Source: Escherichia phage mEp515
Sequence record: PP180003
Direction: 5' to 3' (one strand)
DNA length: 53,673 nucleotides
Shown one piece after another: positions 9,908 to 23,173 of this stretch (position 1 is its first letter; every line of letters begins with the position of its first letter). Both the position numbers and the translations under genes were made by a program. A model generated the notes under the pieces. That model was not told where the DNA came from, did not search any database, and saw nothing but the letters and a program-made list of their open reading frames with translations.

Positions 9908-10162
9908 TCATTCCTCCGGCAATGCAATATCATAAATTTCGCCGTATTCGTCAGCGCGTTTAATGAATCCTTTGCGGATTAATGAGTTTAATGCGTCAAC
10001 AGTAGTATGCAGTGGCAGTTCGCACACTTTTGCGATCTCTTCGCGTGAAGTGTGTGCGCGGCCTTTGTTGTCTGCCTTTTCTGCAATCGCCATTAAGACA
10101 AGTTTTTGAATCGGGCTGTTAAGTTTTACGCTCCATGCTTTGCTAATTATGTTCATGCTCAT
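9908..10162 (-). CDS. Small HTH DNA-binding protein (HTH_36-like), first gene of leftward early operon
   Basis: 84 aa from ATG 10162 (AGGAG SD); LVLMAIAEKADNKGRAHTSREEIAKVCELPLHTTVDALNSLIRKGFI; alternative start at 10276 lacks SD. Confidence 0.5.
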   Translation of the reverse strand: MSMNIISKAWSVKLNSPIQKLVLMAIAEKADNKGRAHTSREEIAKVCELPLHTTVDALNSLIRKGFIKRADEYGEIYDIALPEE

Positions 10163-10467
10163 CGTGTTTTCTCCTATGGTTAGAGTGAACGCGCGGGCGG
10201 GTATCCCATTAGCATTAGATAGCAGTGACTGACCGCTCAACAGATCCCGCCATTGCGTGATATTTGTTTTTCGCATCGCAGCGACACCGGGTTTTTAAAG
10301 AGCTTAAGGCGTCGGCCTTTTTGTGCTTTCCCTTATCTTTTTCCTTGCGTCATTGCAAGTATGGCTTTACCTTGTCAGCAAGTTTACAGAATGGCGCTAA
10401 CAGGTCAAGGCTTGAAAAACACGTTTTGTGACTTGCATCAAACTTTTTTAGGTTATAGGGTAGCGAC
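10163..10467. promoter_or_regulatory. Immunity-region intergenic switch: divergent promoters/operators between cI-like repressor and leftward early operon
   Basis: 305-bp non-coding interval between divergent genes; TTGCAAG-type half-sites; candidate -35 TGACTT at 10429-10434. Confidence 0.4.
10272..10303 (-). promoter_or_regulatory. nutR-like element (boxA-like GCTCTTTAAAAA plus short hairpin) on leftward transcript
   Basis: Minus-strand reading AGCTCTTTAAAAACCCGGTGTCGCTGCGATGCG; 26/33 identical to plus-strand copy at 19470-19502. Confidence 0.3.
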
Positions 10468-11115
10468 ATGAAAACAAAATGGTATGACTTAGCAAAGCAG
10501 CTCATGCGGGCGCAGGGCATGAGTCAGGATTCATTGGCTGATCTCATGGGGATAACCAAAGGTGGCCTTTCGCACTGGCTGAACGGTCGCCGTGAGCCAA
10601 ATCTTGAAGATATTGCGCGGATCATGCGGGCGCTTGGGCGTCGGCAGTTTACTGTCACACATGACGGGATGGTTATCGATGATTCTGTTTCTAACACGTT
10701 ACCGGGAGCGCCACCGCGTGATTTAGGCAGTTACCCGGTTGTTGACTGGAAGGATGTAGCAAACAATATGGAAGGCACATGCCGATCAACATTGCCACAC
10801 ATTACTACTAGCGTTATTTGTTCGGATGATAGTTATTGGCTGGTTGCTAAAGGTGAATCAATGAACGCACCGCAGGGGTTAAGCATCCCGGCGGGGACTA
10901 TGATACTCGTTGACCCGCACGCGCCAGCTATTGACGGAAAACTTGTTATAGCACAACTGGAGGAAGGGCAGATACCTACGTTTAAACAGTTGATTATTGA
11001 TGGAGGCCGAAAACTTTTGCGTTCACTGAATCCGTTGTATCCGCCGATCCCTATGAATCCAGAATCAAAAATCATAGGCGTGGTGGTTGATGCGAAGATC
11101 GTAAACCTGCCATAA
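10468..11115 (+). CDS. cI-like repressor (HTH_XRE N-terminus, S24 LexA-like autopeptidase C-terminus)
   Basis: 215 aa; HTH MSQDSLADLMGITKGGLSHWLNGRREP; C-terminal GESM serine motif and downstream Lys. Confidence 0.8.
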   Translation: MKTKWYDLAKQLMRAQGMSQDSLADLMGITKGGLSHWLNGRREPNLEDIARIMRALGRRQFTVTHDGMVIDDSVSNTLPGAPPRDLGSYPVVDWKDVANNMEGTCRSTLPHITTSVICSDDSYWLVAKGESMNAPQGLSIPAGTMILVDPHAPAIDGKLVIAQLEEGQIPTFKQLIIDGGRKLLRSLNPLYPPIPMNPESKIIGVVVDAKIVNLP

Positions 11116-11120
11116 ACACT

Positions 11121-11146
11121 AGCCGCCGGATGGCGGCTTTTCTTTG
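11121..11146 (+). terminator. Rho-independent terminator after repressor gene
   Basis: AGCCGCC-GGAT-GGCGGCT hairpin followed by TTTCTTTG. Confidence 0.7.
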
Positions 11147-11238
11147 TCTGAAAAAACACCAAAACGTAAACAGAAAACGCTATTTATTGTTTAAATATCA
11201 ATAGCATATAAAATATTTTAAAAAAGTATACAAAATGG

Positions 11239-11267
11239 ATTGACTCGGTGTTTTACGGGGCGTATAT
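11239..11267 (+). promoter_or_regulatory. Strong sigma70-type promoter (pL-like) for rightward early operon
   Basis: -35 TTGACT (11239-11244), 17-bp spacer, -10 TATATT (11262-11267); TACAAAATGG motif abuts the -35. Confidence 0.6.
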
Positions 11268-11522
11268 TGCGAATCAAAGGAAGGGCGTAGGTAACAAAAG
11301 CAGCTTCCTGGCACTTTAAAAATCAGGCTTAACACCTTGTCAACCGTGGAGTAACTCCCCGATGGGGGACCGAAAGCGGCACTGATAACAAGGCGCATGG
11401 GGTGTTTAAAGCGTTACATCCCCCACGAAACCGCACGCAGGGCGACGAGTCAGCTTGCTTGGAGTGAGCAAGGTCACGCCGGGAACGGCGATGATTGCGG
11501 GATTAGTTGAAAGATGTTAAGC

Positions 11523-11560
11523 CGCTCATTAAAAATCTGGTCAGCCGCTGGAAGTGCGGC
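11523..11560 (+). promoter_or_regulatory. nutL-like site: boxA-like CGCTCATTAAAAA plus boxB-like hairpin GCCGC-TGGAAGT-GCGGC
   Basis: boxA differs by one base from lambda boxA CGCTCTTAAAAA (from memory); hairpin 9 nt downstream; sits between promoter and N-like gene. Confidence 0.4.
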
Positions 11561-11617
11561 AATTAACGAAGATGATTTTTTTATTAAGTATCATCAAGGA
11601 TATACGGAGATCAGATC

Positions 11618-11908
11618 ATGACAGTTACAATCATGTATGGCAAATGTGACAGTAAACTGAATGCCAGGGAACGCAGAAGAATAAAAAGAGAAAACGAAAG
11701 AAAATCATCACCTGCAATTAATAAAACGGACAATGTGGATAAAGCCATTCGCTTTGCAAACGAGGAAAGATGCAAACCCAATGGCATTAAAGAACGTCGC
11801 AAAGGAGCGGTAAAATGGTATACGGAAAATGAAAGCGGCAACTACTACCACGCAACGCAACCACGCCAGTTAGGGGAAAAACCCCTTGATAAAGTCCGCT
11901 ACCATTAA
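11618..11908 (+). CDS. N-like transcription antiterminator candidate (arginine-rich motif protein)
   Basis: 96 aa; N-terminal ARM NARERRRIKRENERK resembles lambda/P22 N RNA-binding motifs; first gene after pL-like promoter and nut-like site. Confidence 0.45.
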   Translation: MTVTIMYGKCDSKLNARERRRIKRENERKSSPAINKTDNVDKAIRFANEERCKPNGIKERRKGAVKWYTENESGNYYHATQPRQLGEKPLDKVRYH

Positions 11909-11938
11909 TACAAAATGTAAATAATCGGAGGTGACATT

Positions 11939-12061
11939 ATGGTTATCGAGGCGCTCAAATTCAAACTTGCGGTAGCGGAAATGCTTCATGATGCCGAAAT
12001 GTGGAGCGCCGCGAATAAAGCCTTATACGTAGTGTTAACAGCGAAGGAGATCAAAGAGTGA
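11939..12061 (+). CDS. Hypothetical small protein (40 aa)
   Basis: GGAGGTG SD; stop overlaps GTG start of erf. Confidence 0.3.
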   Translation: MVIEALKFKLAVAEMLHDAEMWSAANKALYVVLTAKEIKE

Positions 12062-12699
12062 AAACAGAGTTACACAAAAAGCTGTGGACGATTCAACAAA
12101 CGTTGAATGCGCCGAAAAATCAGCGTAATAATTTCGGTGGGTACAATTACAGGTCGGCGGAGGATATTTTAGAGGCGGTTAAGCCACTGCTTCAAAATAT
12201 CACGCTGACTGTTAGCGATGAAATCGTCCTGATCGGCAATCGCTATTATGTGAAGGCCACAGCTACGCTAAGCGACGGTGAAGATGAAATTGCGGTAACT
12301 GCTTACGCCAGGGAAGAAGAAAGCAAGAAGGGAATGGACGCAAGCCAGTTAACTGGCGCGACATCAAGTTATGCGCGGAAATACGCGTTGAACGGATTGT
12401 TCTGTATTGATGATGCGCGAGATCCTGATACTGACGCATACGCGAAGCAGACTGGCCAGCAGCCTCGCCAGCAGAAAAACACACCAAAACAACAACCACA
12501 GCAGCAGAAAGCGCCGCCAAATCCTGACGAGGTGTTAGCGCGTTTCTGTGATGCAGCAGCGAAAGCGCCTGACGCTAACAAGTTGCGCGAGATATTCGGG
12601 AAGTGCTGGAAGCTACTTCCTAAAGATTCAGAACAGCAACAGAAAGCTAAAGACGTTTATGATATTCGCTTAAAAGAGCTTAACGGGGAGATCGGTTAA
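12058..12699 (+). CDS. Erf-family single-strand annealing protein
   Basis: 213 aa; NFGGYNYRSAEDILEAVKPLLQNITL and low-complexity Q/P-rich linker typical of ERF; GTG start with AAGGAG SD. Confidence 0.7.
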   Translation: MKTELHKKLWTIQQTLNAPKNQRNNFGGYNYRSAEDILEAVKPLLQNITLTVSDEIVLIGNRYYVKATATLSDGEDEIAVTAYAREEESKKGMDASQLTGATSSYARKYALNGLFCIDDARDPDTDAYAKQTGQQPRQQKNTPKQQPQQQKAPPNPDEVLARFCDAAAKAPDANKLREIFGKCWKLLPKDSEQQQKAKDVYDIRLKELNGEIG

Positions 12700-13109
12700 T
12701 GAGCTTAAATTCAATTACGCTGGGCGGTAACGTTGGGAATGATTGCGAAACGAGATTTACATCAAACGGGAAAGCAATCGGTAGTTTCTCACTTGCTGTA
12801 CAACAAGGTTACGGTGATAACAAACGTGCAATGTGGGTAACGTGTTTAATATTAGGTGATAGAGCAACAAAATTAGCCGAACATATTAGGAAGGGGGATC
12901 ACCTGGTTGTAAGTGGTCGGTTGGATGTTAGGGATTGGGAAGGGCAGGACGGAAGAAAAAACAAATCAGTTGAGGTTATCGTGTCAGATATTGAATTTAT
13001 GAGCGGAAATAAACGCAGCGACCAAAACCAAAACAGACAACGCGAACAGCAACAACAATATAACCAGGATAACGGCGGGCAGGACTGCGACCAAGATATC
13101 CCATTTTAG
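12699..13109 (+). CDS. ssb: Single-stranded DNA-binding protein
   Basis: 136 aa; OB-fold N-terminus, Gln-rich tail ending in acidic DIPF motif. Confidence 0.85.
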   Translation: MSLNSITLGGNVGNDCETRFTSNGKAIGSFSLAVQQGYGDNKRAMWVTCLILGDRATKLAEHIRKGDHLVVSGRLDVRDWEGQDGRKNKSVEVIVSDIEFMSGNKRSDQNQNRQREQQQQYNQDNGGQDCDQDIPF

Positions 13110-13138
13110 CGAATATAATCAATTAGTTAGGTGTTATT

Positions 13139-13663
13139 ATGAGTAATGCCGAACCATTGAAAATATGTTGTACTTGCGGGGCACTATTGCCCCTTTCTTG
13201 TTTTCATAACGATAAGGGCAAGAAAGACGGCAAATCATGTAGATGTAAAGAGTGCGCCAAAAAAGCCACTAGAGAATGGAGTGAAGCGAATAAAGAAAGA
13301 AAAAAGAAAAATGATAGCGAATACGCAAAAACAGATAAAGCCAAAAAGAAAAGGGAAGAATACAGAAAATCGCAAAGAGGTAAAGAGATCGCGGCTGAAT
13401 CAAGAAAAAAATGGAATGAGAAAAACCCTAAAAAATACCACGCCCAAGTGATGGCACATAACGCTATCCGCGACGGCAAATTAATTAAACAACCTTGCGA
13501 AGTATGCGGCAGAGATGACCGCGTACACGCGCACCATTGCGATTATGATAAGCCGCTCGATGTTATGTGGCTTTGCCCGATATGCCATCGAGAGTGGCAC
13601 AACGAACACGGTGAAGGAGCTAATGCACACGACGAGGTATTAAGTGGTGAGCGAATATCTTAA
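13139..13663 (+). CDS. HNH endonuclease-like zinc-finger protein with lysine-rich region
   Basis: C-terminal CEVCGRDDRVHAHHCDYDKPLDVMWLCPICHREWH is an HNH signature; N-terminal CxxC pair. Confidence 0.5.
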   Translation: MSNAEPLKICCTCGALLPLSCFHNDKGKKDGKSCRCKECAKKATREWSEANKERKKKNDSEYAKTDKAKKKREEYRKSQRGKEIAAESRKKWNEKNPKKYHAQVMAHNAIRDGKLIKQPCEVCGRDDRVHAHHCDYDKPLDVMWLCPICHREWHNEHGEGANAHDEVLSGERIS

Positions 13664-13928
13664 AGCACCGCCACCGCCACCGCGAACAAAAGAACAAGTA
13701 TTAAAAGAAGCCCGTGATCATATCGATCATGGGCTTTTTTTATGCGGAACGGCGGCGGATCGAATGGCGAAAAGATTTAGTGACCTGTACGCAAAACAAA
13801 TATGGTTCGACAACTGGCAGGCAAGTTTTTACCCACTGCAAAGAAAACCGGATATGCATTGGCCTGAATATGTCGATCCACGTATGCGCAAATATCGCGG
13901 GCGTATGGGCCAGGTTATTAACGATTAA
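13644..13928 (+). CDS. Hypothetical protein (94 aa)
   Basis: GTG-start ORF overlapping upstream gene end. Confidence 0.4.
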   Translation: MVSEYLKAPPPPPRTKEQVLKEARDHIDHGLFLCGTAADRMAKRFSDLYAKQIWFDNWQASFYPLQRKPDMHWPEYVDPRMRKYRGRMGQVIND

Positions 13929-13942
13929 TGAGGTATTAAATC

Positions 13943-14167
13943 ATGATCGAAGATAAAGAAGTTGACGTAGAAATTCCTGACAGCGCTGATGAGCTTATCA
14001 CTTTCGGCGGCGGCCTGTATGAGTTCGATACATCGGCTGGGTGGGTTGATAAGTGGCCTCAGCCTACTCGCCAGGAATTAATTAACCGCAAATCATTCGG
14101 CGAAGATGCAGAACGCCTTGCTAATAACAAGTGGCTTAACAAGTTCATTGCGGAGGGTGATAAATGA
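13943..14167 (+). CDS. Hypothetical protein (74 aa)
   Basis: ORF in early operon. Confidence 0.45.
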   Translation: MIEDKEVDVEIPDSADELITFGGGLYEFDTSAGWVDKWPQPTRQELINRKSFGEDAERLANNKWLNKFIAEGDK

Positions 14168-14277
14168 ACCTTGCAAAAATTGCCGCATTGCTTGCGGCTT
14201 TGTCTATCGCTGTGCTGTATCTCAGCGTATCGCTTTATATAACGGTAGCGATCATTAAACTCATTGCTAACATGTGA
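14164..14277 (+). CDS. Small membrane peptide (37 aa, MNLAKIAALLAALSIAVLYLSVSLYITVAIIKLIANM)
   Basis: ATGA overlap with upstream stop; single TM helix. Confidence 0.3.
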   Translation: MNLAKIAALLAALSIAVLYLSVSLYITVAIIKLIANM

Positions 14278-14285
14278 GGTTAATC

Positions 14286-14405
14286 ATGAAAGTCGGTAAG
14301 GATATTGTGACGGTCGCGTTTTGCATTATTTGCTTCCTATTTGTGGTTGTGTTTTGTGGCGGATTTGCAGCGCTGGTTAGCTTTATTTTCAGGGGATTGT
14401 TGTGA
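14286..14405 (+). CDS. Small membrane peptide (39 aa, MKVGKDIVTVAFCIICFLFVVVFCGGFAALVSFIFRGLL)
   Basis: GAGG SD; hydrophobic; stop overlaps next start. Confidence 0.3.
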   Translation: MKVGKDIVTVAFCIICFLFVVVFCGGFAALVSFIFRGLL

Positions 14406-14677
14406 TGAAAACATGGGATGCAAAGACTGGTGATCTTGTTGTATTGCCTGAATATCGTGATGACCCTGGCCTGGTTGTACTGAATAAGATGTATAACGAT
14501 CTAGATCGCCCGCTAGTGGTTAAATACCTGGACGGAACAATCATAGAACCGCGCTACTTTGATGATATTGAACTGAAGGCCCGCAACGTTCGCGTTAAGC
14601 CGTTCCGGGCTTATGTTGAGGACCACTGGCGGAAATTGTTCGCCGGACTGAATGGGATGTACGGCGTATGGCTATAA
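14405..14677 (+). CDS. Hypothetical protein (90 aa)
   Basis: ORF, translationally coupled. Confidence 0.45.
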   Translation: MKTWDAKTGDLVVLPEYRDDPGLVVLNKMYNDLDRPLVVKYLDGTIIEPRYFDDIELKARNVRVKPFRAYVEDHWRKLFAGLNGMYGVWL

Positions 14678-14859
14678 AGGAAGTAAAGGTCAAAGACCTG
14701 AAAGGCGGTGAGCGATTAAAGGCGTGGTGGGGTCGCGAGTTTACAGCCGCTGCCTTCATGATCATGCAGGGCGGGGAGGTCGTTATATACGATGAAGACC
14801 TGAAGGAAGTCGGCAGGTGGCATCTTGAGCAATATATCGAGGTGTTAGATGAAAATTAA
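14668..14859 (+). CDS. Hypothetical protein (63 aa)
   Basis: ORF. Confidence 0.4.
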   Translation: MAIKEVKVKDLKGGERLKAWWGREFTAAAFMIMQGGEVVIYDEDLKEVGRWHLEQYIEVLDEN

Positions 14860-15181
14860 ATTCCATAAAGGTTATGATTCGGTCACTAACAAGTTATCGC
14901 TATTTATTGAGTTCGAGCGCCGGATCGTGGTTGTTCCTTATTCTCGGCGCTTTAATGATGCGGCAGGGCGGCGGCAATTCGCGTTAGACATGTTGTTACG
15001 TGGCTGCGGCCTTATGCGCCCGCTATCTGATTTGAAACGGATGATGCCGGGATCGTTCGGTCAGGTTGATGAAATAGAAATAAGCCCGGAAGAACTGAAG
15101 CGGGAGCGTGATTTATTCCTTTCAAGCGAAGGAAACCCGTTTAATTCAGAAACAGAAATGAAATGGCATCACCCACTATAA
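14849..15181 (+). CDS. Hypothetical protein (110 aa)
   Basis: ORF. Confidence 0.45.
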   Translation: MKIKFHKGYDSVTNKLSLFIEFERRIVVVPYSRRFNDAAGRRQFALDMLLRGCGLMRPLSDLKRMMPGSFGQVDEIEISPEELKRERDLFLSSEGNPFNSETEMKWHHPL

Positions 15182-15194
15182 AAGGATAAATATC

Positions 15195-15815
15195 ATGAAC
15201 GACATTAAAACAGCTTATTCACTAGGCAGCGATGGCATGTTAATCACTCGCTACACTGAAGACGCAAGTTTTCATGAAGTGGAAACGAAGGATTATCACG
15301 AAGTATTAAAAGATATGGAAGCTGGCGCGTATGACGCAGATTTGAATCTGGCTTTACAGATTGTTGATATTATGATGGACGCGTCGATCCGCGATTATGT
15401 GTCTTTAAACGCTGAAGAAAAAACGGCTGTGGCTCGTTATGTCTTCTGCCTAACTTTCGTGAAACGAATGGAAGAGGAATATGGGCGCGTGCCAGTGCCG
15501 GAAGAAATTGACCCGCTGGCGTTCGGAAGCGCTGTTATTTTCCCGTTAGATGAAAATCATACTGGTAGCGTTGCGCTGCATTCTATGCGCGGCGTAATGA
15601 AATGCATCTTTGAGGCTAAAGCGCTACAGAAGTGCATTGATGAAGGGCATGACGAAGAAGACGTAAAAGCGATCATGCCGTTGTTTTATGGCGAAATGGT
15701 TGGGAACAACATGCGCGCAAATGATTTAGGTGTGCAGGCTGCCATAACTGTACTTAACGAAGCGCGGAAAATGTCGCAGCCAATGCCGGAACCTGAAAAA
15801 CGTGTACTGCATTAA
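15195..15815 (+). CDS. Hypothetical acidic protein (206 aa)
   Basis: ORF; acidic composition; no motif recognised. Confidence 0.5.
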   Translation: MNDIKTAYSLGSDGMLITRYTEDASFHEVETKDYHEVLKDMEAGAYDADLNLALQIVDIMMDASIRDYVSLNAEEKTAVARYVFCLTFVKRMEEEYGRVPVPEEIDPLAFGSAVIFPLDENHTGSVALHSMRGVMKCIFEAKALQKCIDEGHDEEDVKAIMPLFYGEMVGNNMRANDLGVQAAITVLNEARKMSQPMPEPEKRVLH

Positions 15816-15820
15816 CATCG

Positions 15821-15880
15821 TGATTGCGATCACATAAATATACATTTTGTGTTGTGATCGCATATCCGTTTTGTAAACTG
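15821..15880. promoter_or_regulatory. Intergenic inverted repeat TGCGATCACA / TGTGATCGCA flanking a TACATTTTGT motif (candidate operator or internal promoter)
   Basis: 10-bp arms separated by about 18 bp containing TATACATTTTGT; lies upstream of ORF 15915. Confidence 0.35.
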
Positions 15881-15914
15881 AAATCAAAAGGTTTACGGCA
15901 CGGAGGAAAACAAG

Positions 15915-16133
15915 ATGGCAAGCGAATTAATGCTTTATTGTGTTGAAGGTGGCGTGGGACATGATGCCTACGTCGCCGGGAAAAGCTATCCAGCAGATGA
16001 AGTGCTTTCTAATATGCACTTCCGGGAAAATGAAAACCAGGTGTCTGTGTGGAAGCGATGCGTTGATGGCATTGAGGTAGTTAGCCTCGAAAGATATTTG
16101 GGTAAATTTGACTACGCATTGATCGAGGCTTAA
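15915..16133 (+). CDS. Hypothetical protein (72 aa)
   Basis: ORF with GGAGG SD. Confidence 0.45.
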   Translation: MASELMLYCVEGGVGHDAYVAGKSYPADEVLSNMHFRENENQVSVWKRCVDGIEVVSLERYLGKFDYALIEA

Positions 16134-16231
16134 CTATGGACGAAACATTGCTATTCATGTGCATTTGCTGGGGTTTTATTGCCTTATGCCTGTTTATCAG
16201 GTGGTTTATTGAATACCATATGAGGTGATAT

Positions 16232-16426
16232 ATGGAACAGAAAACTGATTATAGAATACCTGACAACCTGAAGTTAGTTGGCATTGGTTTTGGTTGTCGT
16301 TTTGTATCTGACGCAAACGGGGCGATTTATTTAGTGCGCATCATTGATGGCGTTCAACATATAAGAAGGCTAGGACTTTACATCAAAGCATTTAGAAGAG
16401 GTTATTTGAAAACTCATGAAATTTAA
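16232..16426 (+). CDS. Hypothetical protein (64 aa)
   Basis: ORF. Confidence 0.4.
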   Translation: MEQKTDYRIPDNLKLVGIGFGCRFVSDANGAIYLVRIIDGVQHIRRLGLYIKAFRRGYLKTHEI

Positions 16427-16619
16427 ACAGTATAAAGAATGGAAGATTCCAGAAGAAGCGACAAAGGCAGCGCCCGGAATTTTTTCGGGCGTTTATTTTT
16501 ATATGGGCGGTAAATGGTATTTCGGCAGCAGGCCGGATCACTATTATCAAGAATTATGCAAATCTCACACATGGGACATTAATGAACGCGTGCAAGGCGG
16601 TGTAATAGACGAGGTTTAA
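16416..16619 (+). CDS. Hypothetical protein (67 aa)
   Basis: ORF. Confidence 0.4.
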   Translation: MKFKQYKEWKIPEEATKAAPGIFSGVYFYMGGKWYFGSRPDHYYQELCKSHTWDINERVQGGVIDEV

Positions 16620-16620
16620 A

Positions 16621-16857
16621 ATGATTAATGGTTTTTTAAGCTGGTTAAGAGTGTGGTTTTTTGCCACGCTTTTCGTTTTTTTGGCGTTCAGCGGTGTCAT
16701 TGTCATATTTACGCTGGCGATGATGTTCATTACATGGTCAGTACCTGAATTTAACAATCTTGGAAGTATTTTTGCTGTCGCCCGCGCCATGTTTGCTTGT
16801 AGCGCATTTGTTGGTTTTTGTTGGAGTGTTTCGCCTGATTGGGATGATGAATGGTGA
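16621..16857 (+). CDS. Small membrane protein (two predicted TM helices)
   Basis: 78 aa; hydrophobic segments WFFATLFVFLAFSGVIVIFTLAMMFI and AMFACSAFVGFCW. Confidence 0.45.
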   Translation: MINGFLSWLRVWFFATLFVFLAFSGVIVIFTLAMMFITWSVPEFNNLGSIFAVARAMFACSAFVGFCWSVSPDWDDEW

Positions 16858-16861
16858 TCCT

Positions 16862-17095
16862 ATGGCCTTGTTCAATATGTCAGAACTGCAATTCAACGCC
16901 GTAAAAGCTGCCGCCCGCGCTGCACTTTCTGCTTGCAAAGCGGAGGTAGAGAAAAACGGCTACAGCGATAAAGCCACGCGGCTGATATTAGAAAAGCATT
17001 ATCGCAAGGTCGCCCCACTAATCAGCATTGAGCGCTTTGTGTGGTTGGTGGGGTATTTAAACAACCGTTGGGGGACGGAACAAGATTATTTCTAA
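16862..17095 (+). CDS. Hypothetical protein
   Basis: Start set at internal Met (MALFNMSELQ) to avoid overlap with preceding gene. Confidence 0.4.
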   Translation: MALFNMSELQFNAVKAAARAALSACKAEVEKNGYSDKATRLILEKHYRKVAPLISIERFVWLVGYLNNRWGTEQDYF

Positions 17096-17104
17096 GGGGG
17101 CGTA

Positions 17105-17644
17105 ATGAAAAATGATTTTGGAGGCAGCCACACTCCTAAGGAAATTAAAGATCTATGGCAGACGCCTAAACCAGTTTTCAGAGGAATGGACCGCGAATTT
17201 GAATTTGTCGCTGACGTGGCGGCAAACAAGGAAAATGCGCTAGTTCCTCGGTATATAACCGAAGAAATGGACACGTTGCATTATCCGTGGGGAGCTGTGG
17301 CAATGCCTGGTGAGTATGTCTGGCTTAATCCGCCATATTCTAAACCGGGGCCATTCGTTGAGAAGGCGGCATTAGAACATCAACGAAATCACATTGGCTG
17401 TGTAATGCTGTTGCCCGCTGACATTTCTGTTAGCTGGTTTATGAACGGCGTGGATACGGCAAACGAATGCCGATTAATCACGCGCGGGCGGCTGGCGTTT
17501 ATCAATGCTGCGACTGGTAAGCCAGTAAGCGGAAACAATAAAGGGAGCTTGTTTTTGATCTGGCATCCACGGTGCAGACATGAATGTATTTTTACACACA
17601 TAACACGTAAAGAGCTATACGCAAGAGGTGCAGATAATGACTAG
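17105..17644 (+). CDS. Phage N6-adenine DNA methyltransferase (Dam-like)
   Basis: 179 aa; catalytic NPPY motif (VWLNPPYSKPG); size and layout typical of phage orphan Dam methylases. Confidence 0.8.
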   Translation: MKNDFGGSHTPKEIKDLWQTPKPVFRGMDREFEFVADVAANKENALVPRYITEEMDTLHYPWGAVAMPGEYVWLNPPYSKPGPFVEKAALEHQRNHIGCVMLLPADISVSWFMNGVDTANECRLITRGRLAFINAATGKPVSGNNKGSLFLIWHPRCRHECIFTHITRKELYARGADND

Positions 17645-18134
17645 TGCAGCAGATTTACTACGAATCGCAGCGGAAACAATTGAGCAAAGAGGTAAACAAA
17701 ACGGCTACGACAGAAAAGAGGAAAAATCAGCGCCAAAAATAGCCACTATATACAACGCTAAGAAGGGCGCAAATTTAACCCCACTTGATGTATGGGATCT
17801 GATGATTTGTCTTAAGGAGGCGCGTTTAGAGGCTATTTTGGTTAATGGCAGCGATCCCACTGACACTTTGGTTGACCTAATCAGCTACAGCGCACTAAAA
17901 GCTGAGCAAATATTGAATGATCTGGATGAAGAGTTAAAGAAAAATCAGTTCACTGCCGCCAATATTAATGATGGAATAATAAATGACGCAGCAATAACAA
18001 GCTGTAAGGGATTGCCGCCTTCAATGCTTAAACCTCAGTGTGGCTGTATTTCAAATCGGCTTGATTTGAGTTTTGACAGATCTGAAGCTATTCGCGACAA
18101 GAGGTATGACCCAAATGAAAAAGGTGACAATTGA
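17637..18134 (+). CDS. Hypothetical protein (possible nucleotide pyrophosphohydrolase-like domain)
   Basis: ORF with AGAGGTG SD; functional guess is weak. Confidence 0.4.
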   Translation: MTSAADLLRIAAETIEQRGKQNGYDRKEEKSAPKIATIYNAKKGANLTPLDVWDLMICLKEARLEAILVNGSDPTDTLVDLISYSALKAEQILNDLDEELKKNQFTAANINDGIINDAAITSCKGLPPSMLKPQCGCISNRLDLSFDRSEAIRDKRYDPNEKGDN

Positions 18135-18618
18135 CAGGTTATTGGCCTGCGTTTATGTCGCCGTTTTCGTGATCATCAACCTAATTGTTAACCATTGCGG
18201 CCCGTGGGTGATTCCTATCACTACGGTAGCCGCTGTGTGTGTCAATATGATGATCCGCGACTTCCTGTTATATGACGGCGGTATCAAGTGGTCGGCGACA
18301 ACATGCGCCGCCGCTGGCGCAATCACTGTGCTGATAAATTACGACGCCGGAATGGTAGCGATCGCGTCATTTGTTGCGGTTGTTTCCGGTGCACTTATTT
18401 CTGGCGGCGTTTACCGGGTTTTACCTGGTGACTTTGATTCAAAACGATGGCCTGCAAATATAGCGTCAGCAATAGGCGATGCGTTGATTTTCCCTACGCT
18501 ATCGTTTATGGCATTCATGCCGGAAATATCAGCAATGCAATTCATATCCAAAATGGCGGCGGTAACGGTGATCACTATCATCATGCGCCGCTATTTTACG
18601 TTTGAGGGTAGAAAATGA
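18115..18618 (+). CDS. Integral membrane protein (4-5 predicted TM helices)
   Basis: Strongly hydrophobic segments throughout; start uncertain (18106 or 18115). Confidence 0.5.
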   Translation: MKKVTIDRLLACVYVAVFVIINLIVNHCGPWVIPITTVAAVCVNMMIRDFLLYDGGIKWSATTCAAAGAITVLINYDAGMVAIASFVAVVSGALISGGVYRVLPGDFDSKRWPANIASAIGDALIFPTLSFMAFMPEISAMQFISKMAAVTVITIIMRRYFTFEGRK

Positions 18619-19373
18619 GCAGGGGTAAACATTGGTTTAATAATTGGCTTAGAAATTGGGTCGTTTGGTCGTTGTACGACGGCAGCGGGTACGCCGTCAA
18701 AGATTGGGCGGAAGCAGGATATAAGTGCTATTGCTTCAACTATGACGGCGCAAATCACGGCGATTATGAAGGCGTTAAAATCATTCATCCAAATATTGAA
18801 TACGTTAACGTATGGATTGACAGTCACTTCCTGGTGATGTTCTCGCCTGAACTGTCAGTTTACCCAGATCCTGATATTATCCTGGGCTTCCCGCCGTGCG
18901 ACGATCTCGCCGTGTCTGGCGCTCGCTGGTTCGCTGATAAACGGAAAAAAGATCCTGACTTCCAGGTGAAGGCGGCGAATAGCGCAAAACTGGTAGAAAA
19001 ACTGGCGGATATGCACAACGTGCCGTGGATGGTGGAAAATCCGGTGGGAGCACTGTCAACGCTATGGCGCAAACCTGATTTTATTTTCAACCCTTGCGCT
19101 TACGGTGGCTACCTGCCGGAAGACGACAAACATCCTGCTTTCCCTGATGTTTACCCTGCGCGCGACGCGTATACAAAGAAAACTTGCATATGGTGCGGCA
19201 ACGGATTCAAACAGCCGCTTTTTAGACCTGTAGATCTTAACTCTGGCGATAACCCTGGGTGGGCGAAAACCGGAGGCAGGACGAAACGAACAAAGATGAT
19301 CCGCTCACTAACTCCGCGTGGCTTTGCCCGTGCTGTATTCCTGGCTAACCATAACAGCGCTTTACCGGACTGA
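18615..19373 (+). CDS. DNA (cytosine-5) methyltransferase-like protein, short and atypical
   Basis: 252 aa; motif-IV-like GFPPCDD (Pro-Cys) and motif-VI-like WMVENPVG (ENV); no target-recognition domain at this length. Confidence 0.4.
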   Translation: MSRGKHWFNNWLRNWVVWSLYDGSGYAVKDWAEAGYKCYCFNYDGANHGDYEGVKIIHPNIEYVNVWIDSHFLVMFSPELSVYPDPDIILGFPPCDDLAVSGARWFADKRKKDPDFQVKAANSAKLVEKLADMHNVPWMVENPVGALSTLWRKPDFIFNPCAYGGYLPEDDKHPAFPDVYPARDAYTKKTCIWCGNGFKQPLFRPVDLNSGDNPGWAKTGGRTKRTKMIRSLTPRGFARAVFLANHNSALPD

Positions 19374-19470
19374 AATTTACAAAATGGCGTCATTGCGTGA
19401 TATGGATCACATAATGGCGCTTTTCACCTTGTTATGACGTATCCATTTTGTATACTTCAAACAAGCAAAA

Positions 19471-19503
19471 TGCTCTTTAAAAATCCGGCAGCGCTGAAAT
19501 GCG
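19471..19503 (+). promoter_or_regulatory. Second plus-strand nut-like element (boxA-like GCTCTTTAAAAA plus hairpin GCGC-TGAAAT-GCGT)
   Basis: 26/33 identical to the minus-strand element at 10272-10304; hairpin start resembles P22 boxB GCGCUGA (from memory). Confidence 0.3.
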
Positions 19504-19532
19504 TAGAAATCACCTGAAAAGGAGAGAGCATT

Positions 19533-19709
19533 ATGCCTTTTGATAATTACCAATGGCATGACGACTATGAACGAGAAAGCGTCATGCGTGCAATGTGCAA
19601 TGTATGCAGCACGAAGAAAGGAGACTGCAACGAGTGCAACGAATGTTTAGATCATTGGCTAAGGGCCGGACACGCCGAAAGGCTGAACGAAACAGAGAAT
19701 CAAAAATAA
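19533..19709 (+). CDS. Small Cys-rich protein (58 aa)
   Basis: Strong AAGGAG SD; CNVC...CNECNEC putative zinc ligands. Confidence 0.35.
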   Translation: MPFDNYQWHDDYERESVMRAMCNVCSTKKGDCNECNECLDHWLRAGHAERLNETENQK

Positions 19710-19723
19710 TCGGGGTGGTTTTT

Positions 19724-20329
19724 ATGCAAAACCCTAAAAAACCCATACGACGCCGTTGCAAATGCTGCGGCGTTTTTTTTGAGCCTAAATATCACAATCA
19801 AACGTGGTGCAGTGATGAATGTCTGGAAGAACTGAAGTTTGACCAGCTATGCCGCGACCGAGAAAAGGCTATGAAGGCTATGGAACGGAAGAAACGCCGC
19901 GACAGCCAGCGTGAGGAACGCAACCGGAAACGTAAACAGTTAAATCCGCGCAGCTACTGGATTAAACAGGCGCAAAACGTGTTTAACGCATATATTCGCG
20001 AACGTGACGCAGGACAGCCGTGTATATCTTGCGGGACTTATTATTACGAACAATGCGGCGCTGATGCTGGACACTGGCGCACAGTAGCGGCAGCCGGACA
20101 CCTTCGCTTTAACGAGGATAACGTAAACCTACAATGCCGACATTGCAATCAGGTATTAGACGGCAATGTAGAGTTATACAGAATAAATTTAATAAAAAAA
20201 ATAGGATTAGAAAGGGTGGAGGCATTAGAAAATAATAACGAGACTCACAAATGGACGATAGAAGAATGTAAGGAAATCATAAAAGTCTATCAGGCTAAAT
20301 TGGACGCCTTAAGGAGAAAGGCGGCATGA
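19724..20329 (+). CDS. ninG: NinG / Rap-like recombination endonuclease
   Basis: Start at internal ATG (MQNPKK); PRSYWIKQAQNVFNAYIRERD, PCISCG, GHWRTVAAAGHLRFNE, HKWTIEECKEI closely track lambda NinG as I recall it. Confidence 0.85.
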   Translation: MQNPKKPIRRRCKCCGVFFEPKYHNQTWCSDECLEELKFDQLCRDREKAMKAMERKKRRDSQREERNRKRKQLNPRSYWIKQAQNVFNAYIRERDAGQPCISCGTYYYEQCGADAGHWRTVAAAGHLRFNEDNVNLQCRHCNQVLDGNVELYRINLIKKIGLERVEALENNNETHKWTIEECKEIIKVYQAKLDALRRKAA

Positions 20330-20733
20330 ATGAATATTCTTTTAGCCTGCCTTACCCGCCATCGAACAATCGCTATTACCGACATTCTCGCGGTTTTCAC
20401 TATATTAGCAAAGTGGGGAAGGAATACAGGGAACAAGTAAGAGACATCATCGAGCTATTAAATTTAAACATCAACCTATCTTGCCGACTGGCAATAACTA
20501 TTCATGCCGCGCCGCCTGATAACCGGATCAGAGATCTGGATAATATCCCAAAATGCCTTTTTGATAGCCTTACTTACGCCGGATTCTGGACCGACGACGG
20601 ACAAATCGATTCTATAAAAATTGTTCGCTGCCGGAAGGTGAAAGGCGGGCGATTGTTTATTAAGGTGCGCGAGCGCGGCGACCTGTTACCGGATATTGGC
20701 GAATACGAAACTAATATATGGGGTGAGAAATGA
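20326..20733 (+). CDS. rusA: RusA-family Holliday junction resolvase
   Basis: 135 aa; LPYPPSNNRYYRH, RDLDNIPKCLFDSLTYAGFWTDDGQI, GGRLFIKV match the RusA signature. Confidence 0.9.
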   Translation: MNEYSFSLPYPPSNNRYYRHSRGFHYISKVGKEYREQVRDIIELLNLNINLSCRLAITIHAAPPDNRIRDLDNIPKCLFDSLTYAGFWTDDGQIDSIKIVRCRKVKGGRLFIKVRERGDLLPDIGEYETNIWGEK

Positions 20734-20912
20734 AAAACGAAATTAAAGATCTGCAAATAGATATTCAGCGCGACGAGCTTGATTTAGCTACAGTCAGGCA
20801 AATCCAGGCTTTCCACATGAGAGAATTGCTTGCGCTGAAAGAGCTTGAAAGAAAGTTGGTCCAGTCAATATCTGATCGCAAAAGACTGGTTGCGCGTTAC
20901 GGGGGTAAATAA
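20730..20912 (+). CDS. Hypothetical protein (60 aa)
   Basis: ORF, coupled. Confidence 0.4.
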   Translation: MKNEIKDLQIDIQRDELDLATVRQIQAFHMRELLALKELERKLVQSISDRKRLVARYGGK

Positions 20913-21634
20913 TGAATTTGGAATCTATTCTTAAATTCCATTTCCCAAAGTCACCGCGTTTGTCAGATGAAAGCCGTGGAACATCACCTGATGCACTTAA
21001 TACTACTGATGCACTAACCGCCGCAGGTATGGCGCAATCTCGCGTAGAGCTTGGATATAGCGCTTTTTTAGGGAAGATGGAACTATCACAAGCCGAAAAA
21101 CATAAGGCCGTAGTTTTGCTTATAGAGCGTTTAAAGGCTATGGCAAAAGATTATAAATACGTTATGGAACTGGACGAGGCACAACGCAATGATCTCATTA
21201 TTCTTGTTGCCGTTTTTGCGTTTCGGGATTATTGCCAGAGTGCCGCGACGGAAAAAACTTGCATGGAGTGCGGCGGATATAAATTTACGTTTGACGAATA
21301 CGGTGAAAAACACCTTTGTAAAAAATGCAAGGGGCATGGGACAGTTCGCAATCATTGTAAACAATGCAAGGGCCGTGGCGAAGTACCGGACAAAGCAGCC
21401 AGCGAAGCGACGGAAATGCCAGTATTCAAAACGTGCCAGCATTGCGGCGGGCGCGGTTACTCGCGTTTCCCAGTAGATCTTGTTCGGCAGGCGGTTAATC
21501 AGCTTGTTTTCCCTGTAAGCCGATCAACATGGTGGAAGAAATACAGGGTTTTCTATGAAGACGCCATAGTGGAGCTATTCAAAGAAGAATCTCGCGCGGA
21601 AAGCGAAATCAAACGAGTGACACGGGGTGAATAA
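20912..21634 (+). CDS. Q-like late antiterminator candidate with DnaJ-type zinc finger
   Basis: 240 aa; four CxxCxGxG repeats (CMECGGYK, CKKCKGHG, CKQCKGRG, CQHCGGRG); follows ninG/rusA as Q does in lambdoid phages, but 1.9 kb from the lysis cassette. Confidence 0.4.
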   Translation: MNLESILKFHFPKSPRLSDESRGTSPDALNTTDALTAAGMAQSRVELGYSAFLGKMELSQAEKHKAVVLLIERLKAMAKDYKYVMELDEAQRNDLIILVAVFAFRDYCQSAATEKTCMECGGYKFTFDEYGEKHLCKKCKGHGTVRNHCKQCKGRGEVPDKAASEATEMPVFKTCQHCGGRGYSRFPVDLVRQAVNQLVFPVSRSTWWKKYRVFYEDAIVELFKEESRAESEIKRVTRGE

Positions 21635-21864
21635 TGGAGCTAAAAATCTGGCAGGCTATCGACGTTGTTGATAATGAATTGTCTATGTTCGCCACTAACG
21701 GGAAACGCGTTGTGATCGCTACATGGACTCGTAACCATGATGATATTGCTTTTCGTCGCGCGGCGGCGGAATTGCTTTTCTCTGATGGCGGCTACACGAT
21801 GAACATCGACCAGCTTGCAAGAATGAAAGATGAAAAACTGGTTGATAGCTACACAACTGCTTAA
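21634..21864 (+). CDS. Hypothetical protein (76 aa)
   Basis: ORF. Confidence 0.4.
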   Translation: MELKIWQAIDVVDNELSMFATNGKRVVIATWTRNHDDIAFRRAAAELLFSDGGYTMNIDQLARMKDEKLVDSYTTA

Positions 21865-21874
21865 CGGGGTGAAT

Positions 21875-22108
21875 ATGCGTATCTATGAACACAAGCGGGA
21901 TAAAACCCGCTTTTTTGTTCGTGCTGGAGTGGCGTACCAGTATCACGAATGCGGTTACATTGAGGAGCTTGCTTACGATCTGGACTTCGAGCAAGAAAAG
22001 GAATGGTTCGATTTTAAAATTTACCGGAAGCGCAAACCAACGCGCGACGAGCGACACGCTATCCGTGACTTTTTAATCAGCATTGAACGTTGGGAGACAG
22101 AGGAATGA
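21875..22108 (+). CDS. Hypothetical protein
   Basis: Internal ATG with GGGGTGA SD. Confidence 0.4.
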   Translation: MRIYEHKRDKTRFFVRAGVAYQYHECGYIEELAYDLDFEQEKEWFDFKIYRKRKPTRDERHAIRDFLISIERWETEE

Positions 22109-22332
22109 AGGTAAAATTCTTGCACGATCACGGTTATCCGTCATTGAAACAGGTTGTTGGTAAGGTCGTTGATGTCGTTCATAGCGATGATGTCACTTGC
22201 ATGATTAACGGTGCTGATCTAATTGCCGCTGGTGCTGATGACCATTACATAAATCCAGCGTGGTCGTATACGTTTAGCCTGGGCGACTTCGTTGGCGACA
22301 AGGGGCGCGGGCTGGAAGTGGTCGAGGGTTAA
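22105..22332 (+). CDS. Hypothetical protein
   Basis: ATG 22105; GGGAG upstream. Confidence 0.4.
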   Translation: MKVKFLHDHGYPSLKQVVGKVVDVVHSDDVTCMINGADLIAAGADDHYINPAWSYTFSLGDFVGDKGRGLEVVEG

Positions 22333-22336
22333 CATC

Positions 22337-22585
22337 ATGGACGTTTACGAAGATCTATACCTCCAGACAAACACCAACACTTTTTATTTTCTTAAAAACG
22401 GCGTCGTGTATCGCAGTGACGACGGGGTGATAATGAAAGAGTGGTTATTTAAGCGTGAAGACCTACTCGACGATCTGGTTTTTGCCGGTGTATTTCGTAA
22501 ACGTCCGGCTAACCTGGAAGAAGAAATGTTGATTGAGGTTATTAAAAATGAAAATCAGGGTAAGTTATTTCCGGGCGAAAGATAA
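22337..22585 (+). CDS. Hypothetical protein
   Basis: ATG with GAGGG SD. Confidence 0.4.
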   Translation: MDVYEDLYLQTNTNTFYFLKNGVVYRSDDGVIMKEWLFKREDLLDDLVFAGVFRKRPANLEEEMLIEVIKNENQGKLFPGER

Positions 22586-22799
22586 GGCAACAGGAAAGCA
22601 GGTGGCGATCCTGGTTAACGAGGCGCAGTACATGTTTGTCCTTCAGCCGTGGTGTATGGCTGACTATAGCAGTGATTATCGCCGTCATGCTGCGCGGAGT
22701 GCGGTAGGGATGAAGGGATGGCAACCGCGCGACATGGAAAACTATTGTGAATGGAAATTAGTAGCAAAATACACGGTCGATTATAAAGGGGTTTTCTGA
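22548..22799 (+). CDS. Hypothetical protein
   Basis: ATG with GAGGT SD. Confidence 0.4.
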   Translation: MKIRVSYFRAKDKATGKQVAILVNEAQYMFVLQPWCMADYSSDYRRHAARSAVGMKGWQPRDMENYCEWKLVAKYTVDYKGVF

Positions 22800-22871
22800 T
22801 TAATGTCACTTTCCTGGACGATGCGCGAAACAGGGGCCAAATGGCCCCATTAAACCAGAAGGGGTGGGATC

Positions 22872-23171
22872 ATGAAAAGCGATAAATTCATTGCGTGCTG
22901 TTTTGTCGAAGTTCCTAATGATGATGTTTTCTACAATTATGAATTTAAAGACAGTTGGGGCGGATCTCATGTTGTAGTTGGCAAGCGCGGCGACTGGTTA
23001 TATATCACTGATGGTGACAGGATCTTCACTAAAAACCAGTTGTTAAGAATAAAGGCAGAAAATAATGAAATACCAGTTGGTAATATGGGGATTATGAACT
23101 ACCACGCCTGCCTATGTTTAAAGCAAGATGCGGTAAATAAAGCGCGTAGCTTACCTGGTGCGGAGTTTTAA
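22872..23171 (+). CDS. Hypothetical protein (99 aa)
   Basis: ORF. Confidence 0.4.
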   Translation: MKSDKFIACCFVEVPNDDVFYNYEFKDSWGGSHVVVGKRGDWLYITDGDRIFTKNQLLRIKAENNEIPVGNMGIMNYHACLCLKQDAVNKARSLPGAEF

Positions 23172-23173
23172 TT

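Follow-up and report, generated by a model that had tools for sequence, protein, structure and literature searches.

The DNA analysed here, hereafter the window, comprises 53,673 nucleotides of Escherichia phage mEp515 (sequence record PP180003) and shares 95-97% identity with mEp021 and mEp010. The part considered runs from the repressor gene (10468-11115) through a terminator and a promoter (11240) to gp17 (11618), followed by kil-like, Erf, SSB and Abc2 genes, so ordered that gp17 is the first ORF of the early operon adjoining the immunity region (Table 1). The rightward operon continues from Erf, SSB and Abc2 to NinG, RusA and a Q-like gene, and seven of the terminator-like hairpins on the + strand lie downstream (at 13178, 14182, 16469, 16647, 19754, 21893 and 23595). 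The region is the early promoter, nut site and gp17 of an mEp-immI-group (mEp021-type) E. coli phage.

Table 1. Features of the mEp515 early control region and its nut sites, numbered as in the window
Feature	Position	Strand	Sequence or description
nutL	10304-10271	-	boxA AGCTCTTTAAAAA, spacer CCCGGTG, boxB UCGC-U-GCGA-U-GCGA
Repressor gene (CI/LexA type, HTH + S24 peptidase)	10468-11115	+	Ortholog of Rep021 (gp15)
Intrinsic terminator	11121-11138	+	AGCCGCC-GGAT-GGCGGCT then TTTTCTTTG; from terminator scan
Early sigma-70-type promoter	11240-11268	+	TTGACT-17-TATATT, 10/12 match
Left direct repeat, boxA-like	11311-11325	+	GCACTTTAAAAATCA; imperfect copy of boxA + spacer at 11524-11538
GC-rich structured RNA block, 198 nt	11326-11523	+	Long-leader allele only
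boxA of nutR1	11523-11535	+	CGCTCATTAAAAA
boxB of nutR1	11544-11560	+	5-bp stem GCCGC/GCGGC, flanking U...U, loop GGAAG
Shine-Dalgarno of gp17	11606-11609	+	GGAG, from sequence
gp17, N-like antiterminator, 96 aa	11618-11908	+	100% identical to mEp021 Gp17
nutR2	19471-19504	+	boxA TGCTCTTTAAAAA, spacer TCCGGCA, boxB GCGC-U-GAAA-U-GCGU

The repressor gene product carries Pfam Peptidase_S24 (1.7e-18) and HTH_3 (5e-13) domains and matches phrog_4 (3e-41); in the mEp021 record the gp15 ortholog is labelled "putative repressor". The gene directly adjoins the module on its 5' side and has the same orientation. The intrinsic terminator 3' of the repressor gene, which is also annotated in the mEp021, mEp010 and mEp013 records and is kept in the alignment, shields the early promoter from immunity transcription. 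All features listed in the initial annotation, the promoter among them, are present at the coordinates given, and within 11000-30000 the promoter is the top match on the + strand and the second-best overall. As a class, sites resembling promoters are no more frequent than in shuffled sequences, and support for this one therefore comes from conservation and position: its hexamers differ by at most one substitution in nearly all of about 50 aligned related loci, the spacer being variable, and the distant relative L110 has a related promoter, TTGCAT-17-TATAGT, at the equivalent position. Transcription would start near 11273-11276. An operator search returned one suggestive 16-nt repeat and nothing more.

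The N assignment of the 96-aa ORF had been drawn from its N-terminal ARM and its position, and it proved right, the product being Gp17 itself. The ARM, NARERRRIKRENERK, occupies residues 15-29 of this small, basic protein; across 15 aligned family members N15, A16, R17, R20 and R24 show no variation and R19 and R21 almost none, and R17, R19, R20 and R24 are described as fully conserved in the published account (PMC11893012). The C-terminus is also conserved in the family alignment (KWY..ENESGNY.HA.QPR..GE.PLD.VRYH) and strongly kept within Gp17's own family. Residues 2-95 match phrog_271, "anti-termination protein N-like" (E = 1.1e-10), a profile also matched by lambda N (4e-23) and P22 gp24 (7e-40); judged from these profiles, Gp17 appears to be a very diverged member of PHROG 271, homologous to N at that level. 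On the Pfam N_peptide model (PF25694) it scores 16.6 bits, where the cutoff is 27.9. Comparison with N-protein profiles had been proposed as a check, and beyond PHROG 271 it gave a divided answer: hhalign aligned Gp17 with P22 gp24 over residues 3-49 (E = 4.8e-4, 32% probability), a region that includes MTV.I.YGK and NA.(R/K).RR, but with lambda N over 11 columns at 2% probability, placing RRKGAVKWYTE on lambda ERKNQRTWYSK (residues 75-85). In lambda N, residues 34-47 and 73-107 are the NusA-binding and RNA-polymerase-binding segments, and this short match is all that Gp17 showed against them. A phmmer search of the PDB with Gp17 returned noise matches and no N chain, its family profile recovered from 1.84 billion proteins its own three clusters and no canonical N, and tblastn against 50,697 phages found the mEp group only. 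The protein of L110 (P0053) is far more diverged than any other relative found, in an unchanged gene order.

Gp17 has been described as the N-lambda-like early antiterminator of mEp021, acting at nutR1, nutR2 and nutL, and phages of the mEp group as Nus-dependent (PMC11893012, through whose summary we cite the primary description of the system, Valencia-Toxqui 2023, Arch Virol 168:92). In mEp021, the same account places nutR1 and nutL upstream of gp17 and gp15, respectively, and nutR2 downstream of gp32 (PMC11893012). All three sites were found in the window where this map puts them, at 11523-11560 (+), 19471-19504 (+) and 10304-10271 (-). The first of these comprises the boxA-like element and the hairpin GCCGC-TGGAAGT-GCGGC that had been pointed out at this place, and it is equated with the published nutR1 through its location and description rather than nucleotide by nucleotide; nut sequences were not found in the supplements of the 2025 paper. 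The arrangement of lambda pL-nutL-N that the initial annotation had seen here is thus borne out, except that the site is called nutR1, not nutL, in PMC11893012. The Gp17/nut system is already in the literature, tests included, so the reading is right without being new.

Each of the three nut sites points along its own operon: nutR2 lies just 3' of a DNA methyltransferase gene (18615-19373; phrog_757, 1e-86), and nutL belongs to the early transcript that runs leftward, in the stretch separating the repressor gene from the replication operon. The boxA 13-mer by itself occurs at chance level (four matches with at most two mismatches, 3.0 expected). The composite motif, drawn up with the sites already in view, joins a boxA across 4-11 nt to a 4-bp stem with a U-GNRA(N)-U/A loop; it occurs exactly three times in the 53.7-kb window against 0.03 expected, and none of 300 simulated sequences had three or more. 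The boxA of nutR1 is a degenerate form of the group consensus TGCTCTTTAACAA, which is present in mEp013-type phages, L047 and L110 and from which the window's own copies differ at 1-3 positions. The boxB stems covary across sites and relatives while the GNRA-type loops stay: among 11 distinct sites, pairing holds in 43 of the 44 cells at stem positions 2-5, position 2 showing five pair types, and every 4-nt loop is GNRA, as counted on a manual structural alignment, MAFFT having set the 5' stem halves out of register. The boxB of nutR1 is invariant in about 80 related loci and reads GCUAC-UGAAAU-GUAGC or UGCAC-UGAAAU-GUGCA in phages whose Gp17 is 72-73% identical; that of nutL is UCGCU-GCGA-AGCGA in about 70 relatives, and the L110 sites are GCTCTTTAACAA..CGCU-GAAA-AGCG and CGCTCTTTAACAA..UUGCU-GAAA-AGCAA. 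In the window's boxB elements U.U takes the place of the U-A closing pair found in lambda and most relatives, and as hairpins these elements are thermodynamically unexceptional (z = -0.5 to +0.4). Next to the gp17 Shine-Dalgarno, GAUCAGA (11609-11615) is able to pair with the nut spacer UCUGGUC (11536-11542); the fold of 11536-11620 has z = -2.9, and this pairing is only partly kept in divergent relatives.

Taken together, these observations make it very probable that the locus is an early-operon control module like lambda pL-nutL-N, with Gp17 acting at nutR1, nutR2 and nutL. After infection or induction, host RNA polymerase would initiate at 11240-11268 and transcribe the long leader, which would present the nut site ahead of gp17 as the first gene. 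The N-terminal ARM of Gp17 would then contact the boxB hairpin of the nascent RNA, probably directly, and Gp17, together with host Nus factors on boxA, would turn the polymerase terminator-resistant, in keeping with the antitermination and Nus dependence reported in PMC11893012. The modified polymerase would pass the intrinsic terminators of the rightward operon and reach the recombination genes, the methyltransferase, NinG, RusA and the Q-like gene. Gp17 would also work at nutR2 and, in the leftward direction, at the nutL of the replication operon.

The untranslated leader had been described as 350 nt long, GC-rich, rich in hairpins and free of long ORFs. It is indeed strongly folded (-112 kcal/mol, z = -3.3), and it has no long ORF, those of 37 and 35 aa within it appearing as hypothetical proteins in some phage records; high GC, however, is confined to about 11300-11500 (0.53-0.60), between flanks of 0.24-0.38, and the leader is composite. 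A search for known RNA families, likewise proposed, gave no Rfam family: the whole window had no match at gathering thresholds, and a scan of 11100-12000 at E<=10 returned noise only, none of it within 11300-11520. The GC-rich part coincides with a 198-nt block that is missing in mEp013 and about 11 other loci, roughly a quarter of related phages. The module does not intrinsically include the long leader, 198 nt of which are an insertion/deletion polymorphism. The block is inserted exactly at boxA, so that a boxA-like copy (11311-11325), almost invariant among long-leader phages and 100% identical in three comparisons in which the flanks are 85-91% identical, lies on its 5' side, with the working nut elements, boxA and boxB, on its 3' side. 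Its terminal inverted repeats are GGCTTAACA...TGTTAAGCC, and the flanking direct repeats GCACTTTAAAAATCA and GCTCATTAAAAATCT. In the predicted fold, a closing stem of about 20 bp (GGCUUAACAccuuGUCAAC with GUUGAaagaUGUUAAGCC) bounds two subdomains, with three hairpins apiece (MFE -79 kcal/mol, z = -3.3). ARAGORN found no tRNA or tmRNA, and the cloverleaf-like subdomains are therefore not tRNA genes. RNAalifold predicted 58 pairs, with three compensatory pairs and a U-A to U-G change in the hairpin 11454-11472. Three further candidates within the block were rejected: a hammerhead-like core (CUGAUAA...CGAAAC) and a type I-E CRISPR repeat mimic both lack the defining motif and have no match to their Rfam models, and a second boxB among the block hairpins likewise lacks its defining motif.

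By blastn against 50,697 phage records the block was found in the mEp group only, and among 5426 E. coli genomes 31 carry it, in single copy, always at the gp17-leader site and at no less than 93.6% identity. An 18-mer search of IMG/VR returned the same phages and three chance matches, one of GTDB representative genomes 17 chance matches and nothing else, and a 20-mer search of JGI metagenomes 11 copies that are known variants or single-substitution versions of them. These searches thus brought the covariation analysis no additional divergent copies.

Whether the block acts as RNA at all may be questioned. It could instead be a decayed mobile-element insertion or the carrier of the 37-aa ORF (11397-11510), a reading which we consider unlikely, but not negligibly so. 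Its terminal inverted repeats (9 bp perfect, about 20 bp imperfect), the flanking direct repeat of 15-17 nt and its polymorphic presence would fit a MITE or IS element, with inverted repeats and a target-site duplication, and the ORF is open in 17 of 17 variants and annotated in mEp021 and mEp010. Such elements, however, occupy multiple sites, whereas the block is single-copy, at one site, and has no other location in the phage, IMG/VR, GTDB or JGI collections; moreover, it is better conserved than the flanking genes (93-98% where gp17 is 74%). As for coding, PGAP called no gene at the ORF, the clustered substitutions in the hairpin 11454-11472 preserve pairing yet alter 7 of its 37 residues, and the G-U pairs are consistent with the + strand only. 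A 15-nt duplication would be unusually long for a MITE or IS, and an RNA closing stem explains the inverted repeats equally well. We tentatively regard the block, the one feature of the region that appears to be undescribed, as an accessory structured RNA of the N leader in a subset of mEp-immI phages, with somewhat less than even confidence. Processing at the closing stem might yield a stable RNA; alternatively, the block might modulate Nus-factor loading, Rho sensitivity or the expression of gp17.

A larger role for the leader, namely put-like, RNA-only antitermination of the HK022 type with the ARM protein doing something else, is very improbable. HK022 putL sits directly downstream of an early promoter, and the conserved folded block lies directly 3' of one as well. 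In HK022, though, such an RNA stands just 3' of both early promoters of a phage without an N gene, whereas in mEp515 the block is at one of three nut-bearing leaders only and an N-like gene is present; mEp013, mEp044 and mEp554, which lack the block, are viable and Nus-dependent with gp17 and nut unchanged, and antitermination is attributed to Gp17 in PMC11893012. Least probable of all is that the boxA and hairpin are a chance or purely translational element and the ORF a generic nucleic-acid-binding protein with no antitermination role, since, although boxA alone does not exceed chance, the hairpins are of ordinary stability and the nut spacer can pair beside the Shine-Dalgarno, the excess of the composite motif, the covarying stems with conserved loops, the identical arrangement in L110 beside a far more diverged protein, the place of Gp17 in PHROG 271 with the N proteins of lambda and P22, and the function published for the identical mEp021 protein (PMC11893012) all argue against it.

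A published N-type antitermination system has thus been recognised again from raw sequence, and because the reasoning from ARM and position was correct, the case is useful as a positive control. The three boxB hairpins are further supported, independently, by the comparative data (covarying stems, GNRA loops and the L110 architecture). The block, if functional, would offer a natural on/off variant for studying promoter-nut RNA structure in N-dependent antitermination or N expression.

The closest known system is that of mEp021, which agrees with mEp515 in Gp17, gene order, the three nut map positions and the long-leader allele. It differs in minor details of sequence: in the nutR1 boxA (...TTAACAA in mEp021, ...TTAAAAA in mEp515), in the nutL boxB, which has a U-A closing pair in mEp021 and U.U in mEp515, and in the immunity-side DNA, which is 85-91% identical between the two. 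With lambda, mEp515 shares the order repressor gene, early promoter, boxA, boxB and N as first gene, then recombination and kil-like genes. Lambda nutL, CGCTCTTAAAAA-TTAA-GCCCU-GAAGA-AGGGC, is very similar: its boxA CGCTCTTAAAAA compares with CGCTCATTAAAAA in nutR1, and in both phages boxB has a purine-rich loop (lambda GAAGA, nutR1 GGAAG) on a GC stem of 5 bp. The spacing differs, the nut site lying about 250 nt from the inferred start in mEp515 (about 42 nt in the short allele) and about 32 nt in lambda, but 58 nt from the ATG in mEp515 and about 160 nt in lambda; moreover, lambda has two nut sites, whereas the mEp021-type phage has three (PMC11893012).

At the protein level, lambda N and Gp17, both in PHROG 271, have a common N-terminal ARM form, A-x-x-R-R-R-x-(R/K)-R, and score at an equal level on the P22-type Pfam N_peptide model, below the cutoff in the case of Gp17; pairwise similarity is limited to the 11-residue WY stretch, and Gp17 has no equivalent of W18. 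The N-terminus of P22 gp24 (MTVITYGK...NAKTRRHERRRK) resembles that of Gp17 (MTVTIMYGK...NARERRRIKRE), whereas the C-terminal halves are unrelated. In sequence, the boxA consensus of the group, TGCTCTTTAACAA, is identical to the E. coli rrn boxA, the NusB-S10 antitermination signal; in mEp515, in contrast, boxA is combined with a boxB hairpin and a phage ARM protein. The lambda N leader also has an RNase III-sensitive structure, located between nutL and the N start codon, and both it and the 198-nt block are long structured segments of an untranslated N leader. The size of the block's closing stem would suit RNase III cleavage; unlike the lambda structure, however, the block lies 5' of nut, natural variants can do without it, and it has no sequence in common with lambda. 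Finally, in comparison with lambda, the N operon of mEp515 extends to NinG, RusA and the Q-like gene and the replication genes are on the other arm. Running from Erf, SSB and Abc2 through NinG, RusA and the Q-like gene, the gp17 operon therefore combines the content of lambda pL with the nin-Q end of lambda pR.

The 96-aa product of the open reading frame downstream of the early promoter is 100% identical to mEp021_17 (Gp17), and the 800 bases around the module share 96.9% identity with coliphage mEp010 and 95.8% with mEp021. The antitermination system is thus already known, the protein being identical to an experimentally characterised one. Citing Valencia-Toxqui et al. 2023, a paper on this phage group (PMC11893012, 2025) attributes early antitermination in mEp021 to the lambda-N-like Gp17, reports Nus dependence for the group, describes arginines 17, 19, 20 and 24 of Gp17 as fully conserved across 48 genomes, and names three nut sites as its targets: nutR1 upstream of gp17, nutR2 downstream of gp32, which encodes a methyltransferase, and nutL, located upstream of gp15, the repressor gene. 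The initial annotation had proposed a lambda pL-nutL-N-like arrangement, a reading supported by the identity of Gp17, its cognate nut sites, PHROG-level homology and the published genetics. Its promoter, boxA-like CGCTCATTAAAAA, hairpin GCCGC-TGGAAGT-GCGGC and arginine-rich motif (ARM; residues 15-29, NARERRRIKRENERK) all lie where it had placed them. The leader, described there as hairpin-rich, does fold better than shuffled sequence (z = -3.3); that it is GC-rich holds for about 11300-11500 only (GC 0.53-0.60), and not for the flanks (0.24-0.38).

Positions of the features discussed
Feature	Position	Strand	Details
122-aa ORF	9908-10276		starts inside nutL boxB
nutL boxA	10304	-	between repressor gene and leftward operon
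nutL boxB	10271-10284	-	UCGC-U-GCGA-U-GCGA
CI/LexA-type repressor gene	10468-11115		HTH_3 + Peptidase_S24; directly upstream of module
Direct repeat, 16 nt, copy 1	10474-10489		ACAAAATGGTATGACT; start of repressor gene
Repressor gene intrinsic terminator	11121-11138		upstream of early promoter
Direct repeat, 16 nt, copy 2	11230-11245		ACAAAATGGATTGACT; overlaps -35 hexamer of early promoter
Early promoter	11240-11268		TTGACT-17-TATATT
boxA + spacer repeat, left	11311		GCACTTTAAAAATCA(GG)
Leader block	11326-11523		198 nt, GC-rich
nutR1 boxA	11523-11535	+	
boxA + spacer repeat, right	11524		GCTCATTAAAAATCT(GG)
nutR1 spacer	11536-11542	+	UCUGGUC
nutR1 boxB	11544-11560	+	GCCGC-U-GGAAG-U-GCGGC
GAUCAGA	11609-11615	+	between gp17 Shine-Dalgarno and start codon
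gp17	11618-11908	+	96 aa
Kil-like ORF	11939-12061	+	40 aa; directly 3' of gp17
Endonuclease ORF	13139-13663	+	174 aa, Cys/His-rich
Terminator-like hairpin	13178-13193	+	inside 5' end of endonuclease ORF
Methyltransferase gene	18615-19373	+	phrog_757
Promoter-like element	19429-19456		TTGTTA-16-TATACT (9/12)
nutR2 boxA	19471	+	just 3' of methyltransferase gene
nutR2 boxB		+	GCGC-U-GAAA-U-GCGU
Q-like antiterminator	20912-21634	+	

Searching the window with the boxA of nutR1 (up to 2 mismatches) returned two more copies, exactly at the published positions of nutR2 and nutL, and at all three sites a spacer containing YCYGG leads into a short hairpin. Combined into one motif, boxA (at most 2 mismatches), a 4-11 nt spacer, a 4-bp stem and a loop N-GNRA(N)-N occur 3 times in the window against 0.03 expected under a first-order Markov model, and 3 occurrences were reached in 0 of 300 simulated sequences; the motif was defined after the sites had been seen, so the count shows how specific it is rather than testing it independently. 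The promoter-like element lies directly upstream of nutR2, which might be served by a promoter of its own besides read-through from the early promoter. The nutR1 spacer can pair with GAUCAGA ahead of gp17, in a stem that would enclose boxB (fold z = -2.9) and is weaker in divergent relatives. Translation of gp17 could in this way be linked to the occupancy of nut, a coupling that has been described for lambda N.

Comparison of about 90 related loci, gathered from IMG/VR, E. coli genomes and phage records, shows boxB stems that covary around conserved GNRA-type loops. The nutR1 boxB is invariant in the main clade; where Gp17 identity drops to 72-73%, the phages have GCUAC-UGAAAU-GUAGC or UGCAC-UGAAAU-GUGCA instead. 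The 11 different boxB sequences keep pairing at stem positions 2-5 in 43 of 44 cells, with five pair types at position 2 and two each at positions 3 and 4, and every 4-nt loop is GNRA (GAAA, GCGA, GUGA or GCAA). The nutL boxB of about 70 relatives is UCGCU-GCGA-AGCGA, closed by U-A, whereas the window has U.U: a single A-to-T change breaks the pair. The same change creates an ATG, from which the 122-aa ORF starts in a mechanical ORF list; the gene annotated there in relatives encodes 81 aa. When 1.84 billion proteins were searched with a profile, one more distant relative came up (P0053, 115 aa), in a locus of the same gene order (leftward cro-like gene; rightward repressor, N-like gene, 39-aa ORF, ERF and SSB) with two nut sites, GCTCTTTAACAA-AATGGAA-CGCU-GAAA-AGCG and CGCTCTTTAACAA-TCTGGA-UUGCU-GAAA-AGCAA. 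The lambda nutL, for comparison, is CGCTCTTAAAAA-TTAA-GCCCU-GAAGA-AGGGC. Since the group consensus boxA is TGCTCTTTAACAA, that of nutR1 in the window is a degenerate copy.

Gp17 matches phrog_271 ("anti-termination protein N-like") over residues 2-95 (E = 1.1e-10), a family also matched by lambda N (4e-23) and P22 gp24 (7e-40). Against the P22-type Pfam model N_peptide it scores 16.6 bits, under the 27.9-bit cutoff but level with lambda N, which reaches 16.4 bits. Residues 3-49 align by hhalign with the N-terminus of P22 gp24 (E = 4.8e-4, 32% probability), the alignment with lambda N is confined to an 11-residue WY stretch, and PDB chains gave no sequence match. The family is tiny: clustering at 50% identity leaves three clusters, and nearly all records call the members "hypothetical protein". 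The C-terminal motif KWY..E..NY.H...PR..GE.PLD.(V/I)RY is as strongly conserved as the ARM in comparisons with three related loci (L048, L047 and L110), and is kept even in P0053, encoded at L110. Apart from a WY dipeptide, nothing in the N proteins of lambda or P22 detectably matches this motif, through which the lineage may contact the polymerase or Nus factors. The ARM, the cognate nut sites, the position of the gene, homology at PHROG level and the published genetics together place Gp17 in the N family, best regarded as a very diverged lineage of it.

Outside the known system, a conserved block at a duplicated boxA is a side observation. Aligned relatives carry two leader alleles, with and without this block, and only some three quarters of the related phages have it. 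Its carriers include the window, mEp021, mEp010 and MagusPhagus, as well as most IMG/VR contigs and, among 5426 complete E. coli genomes, 31. In the short allele, that of mEp013 and some 11 further loci, the distance from the inferred start to boxA is about 42 nt, similar to lambda. Phages lacking the block occur naturally, so the antitermination module does not need it. Inverted repeats, GGCTTAACA...TGTTAAGCC, form both of its ends and can be extended to some 20 imperfect pairs; on either side lies one copy of an imperfect direct repeat (15-17 nt) made up of boxA plus spacer. The predicted fold (-79 kcal/mol, z = -3.3) scores similarly on the reverse strand, but many G-U pairs fit the + strand only; RNAalifold predicts two subdomains, each with three hairpins, enclosed by a common stem. 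Variation is scarce. In a divergent clade 8 of about 13 differences fall in the hairpin at 11454-11472 (CUUGCU/AGCAAG to AUCACU/AGUGGU). Three pairs change in a compensatory way and one goes from U-A to U-G, while 7 of 37 residues are altered in a small ORF annotated at this place. In comparisons that give 86-91% identity for the repressor gene, 81-88% for the promoter and as little as 74% for gp17, the block with its left repeat reaches 93-100%, more than the flanking genes. No Rfam family matches it, and no copies outside the leader site of the mEp group were found in phage records, E. coli genomes, IMG/VR, GTDB representative genomes or JGI metagenomes. With limited covariation support, the block is probably a functional accessory leader RNA.

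The 16-nt direct repeat (14 of 16 positions matching) could be a repressor operator, or coincidence with the codons for MKTKW. Downstream of gp17, the + strand carries in order the Kil-like ORF, Erf, SSB, the endonuclease, Abc2, the methyltransferase, nutR2, NinG, RusA and the Q-like antiterminator, and seven of the terminator-like hairpins on this strand interrupt the stretch; the replication genes lie on the leftward operon, behind nutL. The Kil-like ORF shows weak likeness to lambda Kil (PF06301, E = 0.008; phrog_2055, E = 0.006), belongs to its own family (phrog_34942) and has a pL-operon-like position. The endonuclease ORF matches phrog_2340 (3e-41) and, more weakly, endonuclease VII and HNH families; in relatives the genes here and at neighbouring positions differ, one related locus (L053) having an HNH endonuclease ahead of erf. 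The pL likeness noted in the initial annotation is borne out in that the N-proximal part of the operon mirrors the lambda pL operon. In lambda, however, genes of the NinG/RusA/Q type lie at the end of the pR operon, whereas here they are carried on the gp17 transcript, which is presumably why the sites were named "R".
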